From: Escherichia coli
GTDB lineage: Bacteria > Pseudomonadota > Gammaproteobacteria > Enterobacterales > Enterobacteriaceae
Reading direction: 5' to 3' (one strand)
DNA: 64,000 bases
NCBI RefSeq assembly: GCF_044647545.1
Contig: NZ_CP172818.1
The position numbers and the translations under genes are program-made. Under the pieces are notes generated by a model. The model worked only from the letters and a program-made list of their open reading frames with translations. It made no database searches and was not told where the DNA came from. Within the stretch, counting starts at the first letter, position 1; each line of letters starts with the position of its first letter. This document shows, piece by piece, positions 15,521 through 34,871 of this stretch.

Positions 15521-16582
15521 TTATTCTTGCGCGATTTGCCCATCGGGCCAGGCGTGAATCACGGCTTTGATCAGCGTCGCCAATGGAATGGCGAAGAATA
15601 CGCCCCAGAATCCCCACAAACCACCGAAGATCACCACCGATAAAATAATCACCAGCGGATGCAGGTTAACCGCTTCGGAGAACAACACCGGCACTAGCAG
15701 GTTGCCGTCCAGCGCCTGAATGATCAGATACACCGCGAAGCAGCTCCAGAATTCCGTGCCAGCACCAAACTGGAATAGCGCCACGCCAATCACCGGAATG
15801 GTCACCACAAATGCGCCAATGTACGGAATAAGAACCGAGAAGCCGACCAGCACCGCCAGCAGCAGCGAATAGTTCAGCCCGAAGAGTAAGAACCCCAGCC
15901 AGGTGGCGATCCCCACCACGATCATCTCCAGCACTTTGCCGCGGATATAGTTGGTGATTTGTTGATTCATCTCCTTCCACACCTGTCCTGCCAGTCCGCG
16001 GTTACGCGGTAGCACCCGACGAACGGCGTTCAGCATCTGCTCTTTGTCTTTCAGCAGGAAGAAGACCATCAATGGCACCAGCACCAGATAGACAGCTATG
16101 GTGAGCAAACCGACCAGCGAGGCGAGGGAAATTTTCACCACCGAATCGCCCATGGTCAGCATCCGACTGCGCATATTTTCGGCCATTGCATCAATAATGC
16201 CCGCGTCCATTAACGCCGGATAGCGGCGCGGCAACGTGGCGGCAAAGTCAGAAAGCTTATTGAGCATCCCCGGCATATCGCGAATTAAGTAGATGCCCTG
16301 CTGCCAGGCGATAGGCAATACCACGAACGCCATCAGTAGCAATATACCGACGAAAACCACCAATACAATCGACGTCGCCCAGCGGCGGGAGCAGCCAATA
16401 GATTGCAGGCGCACGGTTGGCCATTCCAGCAAATAGGCCAGCACAATAGCCACCAGCAACGGAGCAAGCAGGCCACTAAAGAAAAAGATAATGCCAAATC
16501 CGGCAACTAAAATAACCAGCAAGGCAATCGCTTCCGGGTCGCTAAAACGGCGGCGATACCATTGCATCAACATTTCGAGCAT
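15521..16582 (-). CDS. perM: AI-2E family inner-membrane transporter/permease
   Basis: 353-aa polytopic ORF (yfgO). Confidence 0.88.
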   Translation of the reverse strand: MLEMLMQWYRRRFSDPEAIALLVILVAGFGIIFFFSGLLAPLLVAIVLAYLLEWPTVRLQSIGCSRRWATSIVLVVFVGILLLMAFVVLPIAWQQGIYLIRDMPGMLNKLSDFAATLPRRYPALMDAGIIDAMAENMRSRMLTMGDSVVKISLASLVGLLTIAVYLVLVPLMVFFLLKDKEQMLNAVRRVLPRNRGLAGQVWKEMNQQITNYIRGKVLEMIVVGIATWLGFLLFGLNYSLLLAVLVGFSVLIPYIGAFVVTIPVIGVALFQFGAGTEFWSCFAVYLIIQALDGNLLVPVLFSEAVNLHPLVIILSVVIFGGLWGFWGVFFAIPLATLIKAVIHAWPDGQIAQE

Positions 16583-19539: not shown

Positions 19540-20829
19540 TTATTTGTCTGTTATATCCGCGTCTTCTGCGTCCAGCACCACTTCTTCAGGGCGCAGCATA
19601 CTAATCAGTTTGAAGATCAAACTTAAGCCGATACCGACGATGGTCGCCAGCGCCATACCTTTCAGCTCCGCCGCGCCAATGTTTACCTTCGCGCCACTGA
19701 CGCCGATGATCAAAATAACGGAAGTCAGGATCAGGTTCTGTGCTTTGTTGTAATCCACTTTCGATTCGATCAACACACGAATACCGGAAGCACCGATGAC
19801 ACCGTAAAGCAGCAGCGAAACGCCGCCCATCACCGGCAATGGAATCATCTGGATAGCAGCAGCCAGTTTACCGACGCAGGAAAGCAGGATAGCGAAAATC
19901 GCCGCCCCGCCGATAACCCAGGTACTGTAAACACGGGTGATCGCCATCACGCCAATGTTTTCTCCGTAAGTGGTGTTTGGCGTGGAGCCAAAGAAGCCGG
20001 AGATCACGGTCGACAAGCCGTTAGCAAACATCGAACGGTGCAGACCTGGATCGCGCAGCAGATCTTTTTTGACGATATTAGCCGTTACCACCAGGTGCCC
20101 TACGTGTTCGGCAATAACCACTAACGCCGCTGGCAGAATAGTCAGAATGGCAAACCACTCGAAGCGCGGCGTATAGAGGGTCGGCAGCGCAAACCAGTGA
20201 GCATTAATAATCGGCGTGGTATCGACAATTCCCATTGCGAAAGAGAGCGCGTAGCCCACCAGCACGCCAATTAAAATCGGGATAATTGCCAGGAAACCAC
20301 GAAACAGCACGGAACCTAAAACCGTGACTGCCAAGGTGGTAATGGAGATGATGATGGTTTTGGAGTCTGGCGTTTGCCCTTCAGCCGGGAGTAAACCTGC
20401 CATACCGGCAGCTACGCCCGCCAGCTCCAGACCGATGACGGCAACGATTGCGCCCATTGCCGCAGGTGGAAACAGCACGTCCAGCCAGCCGGTCCCCGCT
20501 TTCTTCACGATAAAAGAAACCAGGCAGAACAGCACGCCGCACATAATAAAGCCGCCCAGCGCGACTTCATACCCTAACGGCAACAGTAACAATACCGGTG
20601 AAATAAAGGCAAAGCTGGAACCAAGATAAGCCGGGATTTTCCCTTTACAGATGAAGAGATACAGCAGCGTTCCTATACCGTTAAATAACAGTACAGTCGC
20701 CGGGTTAATATGAAATAAGACGGGCACCAGGACGGTTGCACCAAACATGGCGAACAAATGTTGCAAACTAAGCGGGATTGTCTGTAAAAGTGGCGGTCTT
20801 TCACTCACCCCGATAGCACGGCGCGTCAT
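19540..20829 (-). CDS. uraA: Uracil:H+ symporter (NCS2 family)
   Basis: 429 aa from ATG at 20829 ([16 protein letters not shown]...); polytopic. Confidence 0.93.
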
Positions 20830-20875
20830 AGAATTATCCTCTGTATTATGTGTTATAGGCGCTTTACTCAAAAAA

Positions 20876-20914: not shown

Positions 20915-21541
20915 TTATTTCGTACCAAAGATTTTGTCACCGGCATCGCCGAGGCCCGGAATAATGTATCCGTGCTCGTTCAGTCCCTGGTCAATCGATG
21001 CGGTATACAGTTCGACGTCCGGGTGCGCTTTTTCCAGCGCAGCGATACCTTCTGGCGCAGCTACCAGTACCAGAACTTTGATGCTGCTGCAGCCCGCTTT
21101 TTTCAGCAGGTCGATGGTCGCGATAACGGAACCACCGGTTGCCAGCATTGGGTCAACGATCAGCGCCATACGCTCATCGATGTTAGAAACCAGTTTCTGG
21201 AAGTACGGTACCGGCTCCAGCGTTTCTTCATTACGGTACATACCGACGACGCTGATACGCGCGCTCGGAACGTTTTCCAGCACACCGTCCATCATCCCCA
21301 GACCGGCACGTAGAATTGGCACAACGGTAATTTTCTTACCTTTGATCTGATCGATTTCTACCGGGCCGTTCCAGCCTTCGATAGTTACTTTTTCCGTTTC
21401 GAGGTCGGCGGTCGCTTCGTAAGTCAGCAGGCTACCCACTTCGGAAGCGAGTTCGCGAAAGCGCTTGGTGCTGATATCTTGCTCACGCATCAGTCCCAGC
21501 TTGTGTTTGACGAGTGGGTGTTTGACTTCCACGATCTTCAT
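20915..21541 (-). CDS. upp: Uracil phosphoribosyltransferase
   Basis: 208 aa from ATG at 21541 ([17 protein letters not shown]...). Confidence 0.94.
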
Positions 21542-21785
21542 ACTCTTTCTCCTTTGAGGGGCAGCCACAAAAAAATCGACGGATTATACCTCCTTTCTTC
21601 AAGGCGGCAATATTATTTTCGTTGACTTTAGTCAAAATGATAACGGTTTGAGATAAAGTTATTTTGTATTCAAATGGTTATGGAAGAAGATTATTCCATC
21701 CGAAAACGATCCTTTGCCCTGGTACAAGTATTCTTTTGCCGCGCGCCTGGGGAAAAGACGTGCAAAAAGGTTGTGTAAAGCAGTC

Positions 21786-21801
21786 TCGCAAACGTTTGCT
21801 T
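21786..21801. promoter_or_regulatory. PurR operator (pur box) in the purMN promoter
   Basis: tCGCAAACGTTTGCtt, near-perfect palindromic PurR box, about 65 nt upstream of purM start. Confidence 0.75.
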
Positions 21802-21846
21802 TCCCTGTTAGAATTGCGCCGAATTTTATTTTTCTACCGCAAGTAA

Positions 21847-22901
<1,055 letters not shown>

Positions 22902-22902
<1 letters not shown>

Positions 22903-23540
22903 TGAATATTGTGGTGCTTATTTCCGGCAGCGGAAGTAATTTGCAGGCAATTATTGACGCCTGCAAAACCAACAAAATTAAAGGCACCGTACGGGCAGTT
23001 TTCAGCAATAAGGCCGACGCGTTCGGCCTTGAACGCGCCCGCCAGGCGGGTATTGCAACGCATACGCTCATCGCCAGCGCGTTTGACAGTCGTGAAGCCT
23101 ATGACCGGGAGTTGATTCATGAAATCGACATGTACGCACCCGATGTGGTCGTGCTGGCTGGTTTTATGCGCATTCTCAGCCCGGCGTTTGTCTCCCATTA
23201 TGCCGGGCGTTTGCTGAACATTCACCCTTCTCTGCTGCCGAAATATCCCGGATTACACACCCATCGTCAGGCGCTGGAAAATGGCGATGAGGAGCACGGT
23301 ACATCGGTGCATTTCGTCACCGATGAACTGGACGGTGGCCCGGTTATTTTACAGGCGAAAGTCCCGGTATTTGCTGGTGATACGGAAGATGACATCACCG
23401 CCCGCGTGCAAACCCAGGAACACGCTATTTATCCACTGGTGATTAGCTGGTTTGCCGATGGTCGTCTGAAAATGCACGAAAACGCCGCGTGGCTGGATGG
23501 TCAACGTCTGCCGCCGCAGGGCTACGCTGCCGACGAGTAA
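22902..23540 (+). CDS. purN: Phosphoribosylglycinamide formyltransferase 1
   Basis: 212 aa; overlaps purM stop by 1 nt. Confidence 0.93.
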
Positions 23541-34740: not shown

Positions 34741-34871
34741 GGGCAATATCTCGACCAGAGTGGTTAATAAATATTGCCGCGGCATTATACAGAGCGTAAC
34801 CGATTGCATCTACCCCTTTTTGCAAAAAATGCTTGCTATCCCCGGAGGGCGGGTTACTATCGACTGAATAA

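Follow-up and report, generated by a model that had tools for sequence, protein, structure and literature searches.

The PurR operator in the promoter of the purMN operon of an Escherichia coli strain

Results

Gene organization around the site

The stretch of E. coli DNA that was analysed, referred to here as the window, is 64 kb (64,000 nucleotides) long. It contains purM and purN on one strand and upp on the other, with the divergent upp gene forming the other boundary of the intergenic DNA that lies upstream of purM (Table 1). The initial annotation had placed the purMN genes downstream of a candidate binding site for the repressor PurR, and NCBIfam profiles confirmed the identity of both genes. 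The start of purN overlaps the stop of purM, which fits an operon.

Table 1. Positions of genes, promoter elements and the PurR operator in the window.
Feature	Position	Strand	Description	Basis
upp (uracil phosphoribosyltransferase)	20915..21541	-	Divergent neighbour bounding the intergenic region	NF001097, 303 bits; annotation
upp promoter	21610..21583	-	TTGCCG-16-TATAAT; transcription start site G at 21577	
PurR operator (pur box) of the purMN promoter	21786..21801		TCGCAAACGTTTGCTT	Sequence, published ChIP-chip motif, PWM, conservation
Perfect 12-bp palindromic core	21788..21799		GCAAACGTTTGC; central CpG at 21793-21794	Self-complementarity computed
Predicted extended -10 element	21806..21814	+	TGtTAGAAT; TG at 21806-21807, TAGAAT at 21809-21814 (-12 to -7)	
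purM transcription start site	21821	+	G; 44-nt 5'UTR	PMC3415461, mapped via the purM start
Likely Shine-Dalgarno region	21850..21856	+	GTGGGGA; 8 nt before the GTG	
purM (phosphoribosylformylglycinamidine cyclo-ligase)	21865..22902	+	345 aa, GTG start	TIGR00878, 515 bits; RefSeq annotation
purN (phosphoribosylglycinamide formyltransferase)	22902..23540	+	212 aa	TIGR00639, 281 bits; ORF list; K-12 annotation

The gene order is the same as in K-12 MG1655, with hda, uraA, and upp on one strand and purM, purN, ppk, and ppx on the other. The segment 21738-21864 (127 nt), which contains the box, the promoter, and the 5'UTR, matches K-12 exactly, and the 11 positions at which the intergenic region differs from that strain are all upstream of 21738. 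Many RefSeq E. coli genomes contain the 801 bp surrounding the site at 100% identity, annotated there as upp / purM, and the 60 nt spanning the box and the -10 region have an identity of 99% or more in 5306 of the 5424 complete E. coli genomes. The gene for the repressor, purR, is present in E. coli. In K-12 it is located approximately 0.9 Mb from purMN (PurR motif at 1,735,808; PMC3159470), outside the window.

Sequence and symmetry of the site

The sequence TCGCAAACGTTTGCTT lies in the 323-bp divergent upp/purM intergenic region, 63 nt upstream of the GTG start codon of purM. It had been described as an almost perfect palindrome that matches the pur-box consensus. The exact letters are found at these positions and 12 of the 16 are self-complementary, but the two outermost positions at either end are unpaired, so that the perfection extends over 12 bp rather than 16. 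The window has 14 perfect 12-bp palindromes, among them this core, GCAAACGTTTGC. Its CG dinucleotide is at the exact centre of the palindrome (positions 8-9) and is invariant in 29 Enterobacterales as well as in the Vibrio and Aeromonas boxes. The match to the consensus was upheld, with two mismatches to the classical pur box ACGCAAACGTTTTCNT and one, at position 1, to the motif ACGNAAACGTTTGCNT derived from ChIP data (PMC3159470). We also considered an RNA hairpin or terminator. This was rejected because the purM transcription start site is downstream of the palindrome, which has no loop; a scan found no terminator-like site.

The site lies inside the purM core promoter

Kim et al. (2012) reported a transcription start site for purM at NC_000913.2 2,619,175 with a 44-nt 5'UTR, and the upstream sequence given for it is ...CTCGCAAACGTTTGCTTTCCCTGTTAGAATTGCGCCG, ending ...TAGAATTGCGCCG (PMC3415461 supplementary file 2). 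This start site corresponds to 21821 in the window, and the 16-mer therefore spans -35 to -20 relative to it. Thus, the overlap with the purM promoter that had been expected from the sequence is correct, and the site is inside the core promoter. It covers the position of the -35 hexamer along with the greater part of the spacer, and 7 bp separate its end from the -10 hexamer.

We located the purM promoter from the published start site together with conservation of the sequence CTGnTAGAAT. The element TGtTAGAAT within it is predicted to be an extended -10. At the -35 position the hexamer reads TCGCAA, with only three of six matches to TTGACA. A generic sigma-70 scan called no + strand promoter in the upp-purM region, which we attribute to this poor -35 hexamer. 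Further downstream, the GGGG core of the likely Shine-Dalgarno region is kept in 28 of the 29 Enterobacterales upstream regions.

Published evidence for PurR binding

The PurR operator of purMN is already published, with a literature that goes back to about 1990, curated database entries, and ChIP-chip data from 2011. Purine-dependent and purR-dependent repression of purMN was reportedly found by Meng et al. and He et al. in 1990, and the original in vitro footprint and lacZ-fusion work is likewise said to be theirs.

Comparison with PurR ChIP data had been proposed beforehand as a check of the site. In the ChIP-chip study of Cho et al. (2011), the identical 16-mer is the PurR motif at K-12 2,619,140-2,619,155, and it lies under the peak assigned to purM-purN, which covers K-12 2,618,847-2,619,484 (PMC3159470 Table 1). 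The log2 enrichment of this peak was 0.98 without adenine and 2.08 with adenine, the latter being the maximum of the table, and purMN was singled out among the promoters with a large adenine-dependent difference in ChIP signal (PMC3159470). This increase in occupancy with adenine indicates corepressor-dependent binding of PurR in vivo. Cho et al. also counted purMN with the units of IMP biosynthesis that PurR-hypoxanthine represses and noted that PurR sites are generally located between the -35 and -10 elements, where they regulate initiation (PMC3159470).

A second line of evidence comes from Liu et al. (2011), who isolated the upp-purMN intergenic region on a multicopy plasmid and identified two sites in it, one for PurR (CGCAAACGTTTGCTT) and one for FNR (TTGACTTTAGTCAA) (PMC3266220). 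Deletion of AAACGTTTGCTT from the multicopy clone weakened its protective effect, which the authors attributed to titration of PurR (PMC3266220). This plasmid-titration experiment bears on PurR binding only indirectly.

These experimental data are from K-12, which is another strain than that of the window, and the sequence of the element is identical in the two. The K-12 purMN operator in RegulonDB/EcoCyc shares with the site the same 16-mer, the surrounding 127 nt, and the position relative to the transcription start site and the start codon. The element in the window is the purMN PurR operator of K-12, carried by a different E. coli strain. Identification of the site as a PurR operator in the initial annotation is thus supported by an identical 16-mer in a K-12 ChIP-chip peak, by the effect of deleting the site, and by its conservation upstream of purM (see below).

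The operator is in an intergenic region shared by two divergent transcription units, and PurR regulates some pyrimidine genes (carAB, pyrC, pyrD, and codBA; PMC3159470). Both observations would be in keeping with a PurR site that also regulates upp-uraA, or that acts at a distance, in addition to controlling purMN. We consider such a dual role very unlikely, since the start site of upp transcription (21577) is 209 bp away from the box, which lies upstream of it and far outside the upp core promoter. Moreover, Cho et al. assigned the peak to purM-purN only (PMC3159470), and the other Enterobacterales keep the distance of the box to the purM -10 element and not its distance to upp.

It is more improbable still that the palindrome is mainly the operator of another LacI-family regulator, such as GalR/GalS, CytR, or RbsR, which use AAACGTTT-centred palindromes, with PurR binding being secondary. 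The core A-A-N-C-G-N-T-T is common to operators of this family, GalR has PurR-like binding sequences at purR itself (PMC5110547), and structure-based energies separate GalR/GalS sites from PurR sites poorly (PMC2577325). However, none of the 15 GalR ChIP-chip regions is at purM (PMC5110547 Table 3), and the outer GTG...CAC arms of GalR operators (GTGNAANCGNTTNCAC) are absent from the site, which has TCG...CTT instead. By contrast, the enrichment of PurR at purM is the highest in the table of Cho et al. and responds to adenine (PMC3159470), and the site precedes genes for purine biosynthesis, the core of the PurR regulon.

Motif scores in the window

Matches to the consensus with up to three mismatches were as frequent in the window as expected (3 found, 3.0 expected per 64-kb window). 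Because counting mismatches was therefore uninformative, we replaced it with a leave-one-out position weight matrix (PWM) and an exact score distribution. The matrix was built from 27 other published PurR sites, leaving out TCGCAAACGTTTGCTT. With this matrix TCGCAAACGTTTGCTT scored 17.05 bits, with a per-position p of 8.5e-7. At this score, 0.11 chance matches are expected over the full 64-kb window and 0.0005 over the 296-bp region between upp and purM. Known PurR sites score between 12.1 and 25.0 bits, which places the purMN site (17.0) in the lower-middle part of the range. The closest known operator is that of xanP, TGGCAAACGTTTGCTT, with one mismatch.

The best match to the PurR matrix in the window is at another position. 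This is ACGGCAACGATTGCGC at 20438-20453 (+), which lies inside uraA (ORF 19540..20871, minus strand), scores 17.8 bits, and is identical at 15 of 16 positions to the published yieG PurR motif. We examined it as a second operator and rejected it; the sequence encodes GAIVAV, and its synonymous positions drift across Enterobacterales genera. The table of Cho et al. has no PurR ChIP-chip peak at this look-alike (PMC3159470). In Markov simulations, 45 of 300 windows reached 17.8 bits or more somewhere. The match in uraA is probably a coincidence of the coding sequence. Since a 16-mer inside uraA scores equally high, a PWM score alone is no proof of binding; the look-alike illustrates the need for conservation and context beyond a motif score.

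Conservation of the site upstream of purM

For a comparison across taxa we scanned one genome per species with a degenerate DNA pattern for the N-terminal motif of PurM (including YKDAGVDI). The operator is not part of this pattern. The scan yielded at least 120 loci, and for these the best PWM score in the 310 nt upstream was taken. The best scores were bimodal among the loci listed. A strong box was present upstream of purM in all 42 listed loci from three groups (28/28 Enterobacterales, 10/10 Vibrionaceae, and 4/4 Aeromonas), scoring between 14.4 and 24.9 bits and lying 77-155 nt upstream of the PurM motif. By contrast, a box above 11.4 bits was found in none of the 74 other scorable loci among those listed, which include Shewanella, Pseudoalteromonas, Colwellia, Halomonas and relatives, Idiomarinaceae, Oceanospirillales, Orbaceae, and alpha- and epsilon-proteobacteria. 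Control segments of equal length inside purM reached a maximum of 11.7 bits. Two Enterobacterales relatives, Orbaceae bacterium ESL0727 (5.2 bits) and Zophobihabitans entericus (-2.8 bits), have no PurR-like box upstream of purM, unlike all of the listed Enterobacterales, Vibrionaceae, and Aeromonas.

We also aligned the window with 28 Enterobacterales genera, giving 29 sequences in all. Most of the upstream DNA could not be aligned across this set. Three blocks are invariant or nearly invariant: CTCGCAAACGTTTGC, CTGnTAGAAT, and the ribosome-binding region, which contains GGGG, together with the GTG start codon. Within these, CGCAAACG-TTGC is nearly invariant and CTGnTAGAAT is invariant in the 29 Enterobacterales; the latter sequence is also present in Vibrionaceae and Aeromonas. 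The conserved box and CTGnTAGAAT amid diverged flanks make up a phylogenetic footprint, of the classic kind, of an operator plus a -10 element.

These results leave a negligible probability for a chance pur-box match without a regulatory role, because even though the mismatch count is not significant in 64 kb and the comparable match in uraA appears to be coincidental, only 0.0005 matches are expected upstream of purM, the box is invariant in non-coding DNA of 29 Enterobacterales genera whose flanks are beyond alignment, it separates 42 of 42 loci in three groups from 0 of 74 in other taxa among the loci listed, and its published occupancy in ChIP-chip (PMC3159470), taken with this conservation, effectively refutes such a reading.

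Discussion

Repression of purMN by PurR

We conclude, with a probability of about 97%, that 21786-21801 is the operator through which the LacI-family repressor PurR controls the E. coli purMN operon. PurR is a dimer of the LacI family that binds its 16-bp operator only when hypoxanthine or guanine is bound, and adenine is converted to hypoxanthine. In complexes of PurR with the purF operator, the central CpG is where the hinge helices intercalate, kinking the DNA. In de novo IMP synthesis, the products of purM and purN carry out steps 5 and 3. According to the mechanism that we propose, a build-up of hypoxanthine or guanine would lead to binding of the corepressor-bound PurR dimer to TCGCAAACGTTTGCTT, with one helix-turn-helix contacting each half-site and the hinge helices opening the minor groove at the central CpG. 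PurR located on -35 to -20 would then keep sigma-70 region 4 and the polymerase off the -35 and spacer DNA. Because PurR would occupy DNA that RNA polymerase needs, initiation of purM-purN transcription would be repressed. The geometry of the promoter thus suggests steric occlusion as the mechanism of repression.

Comparison with other PurR operators

The xanP and purF operators are also 16-bp pseudo-palindromes with a central CpG and GCAAAC/GTTTGC half-sites. The purF operator, AAGAAAACGTTTGCGT, which is the site that was co-crystallized with PurR, matches the purMN site at 14 of 16 positions when read on the opposite strand. In the purMN site, position 1 is T instead of A and positions 15-16 are TT instead of GT. 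The intragenic operators of purB and purR are bound by the same repressor and belong to the same motif family. They differ in that they are downstream of the promoter and act as a roadblock to elongation (PMC3159470), whereas the purMN site, located within the core promoter, would be expected to prevent initiation.

The purM boxes of Vibrionaceae and Aeromonas are likewise strong (15.0-24.9 bits) and are followed by the same CTGnTAGAAT -10 region, but they overlap the -35 region from further upstream than the Enterobacterales box does. The distance from the end of the box to TAGAAT is 7 nt in all 29 Enterobacterales versus 17-21 nt in the Vibrionaceae and Aeromonas loci listed, being 17-18 nt in most of the 10 Vibrionaceae and 21 nt in the four Aeromonas. 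The operator is thus shifted relative to the promoter by about 1 to 1.5 helical turns between lineages. One rather speculative explanation, which we regard as unlikely although less so than the alternatives discussed above, is that in Enterobacterales the PurR box itself serves as the weak -35 of an extended -10 promoter, and that two geometries of repression, differing in strength or kinetics, may have evolved.

The value of the site in this study is as a positive control, where an operator validated by experiment was recovered from raw sequence at its exact coordinates. As a discovery it carries little weight, being correct but ordinary. Mildly new by-products are the conserved architecture of the predicted extended -10, the spacing in Vibrionaceae and Aeromonas, and the non-conserved look-alike in uraA.

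Other regulatory sites in the window

Two further sequences in the window are identical to published PurR ChIP motifs. In the guaB-xseA intergenic region, GCGTAACCGATTGCAT at 34794-34809 (+) is identical to the motif of guaBA. Relative to the expected guaB start codon it is approximately 51-66 nt upstream, and it is on the strand opposite guaB. The other, CCGGAAGCGATTGCCT at 16522-16537 (-), is identical to the motif assigned to yfgO/yfgC (perM/bepA); it is inside the first 60 nt of the called perM ORF (15521..16582, minus strand) and not intergenic.

The FNR box of the upp-purM region, TTGACTTTAGTCAA (PMC3266220), is at 21622-21635. It was placed at -61.5 from the upp transcription start site by Liu et al. 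(PMC3266220), versus a distance of 51.5 nt between its centre and the upp start site of Kim et al. at 21577 (PMC3415461). The two sources therefore imply different start sites for upp.

The T-run in the initially transcribed region of upp differs in length, with 7 T in the strain of the window (21569-21575) versus 8 T in K-12. UTP-sensitive reiterative transcription at this run controls upp, and a change in its length could therefore alter the pyrimidine regulation of the gene.
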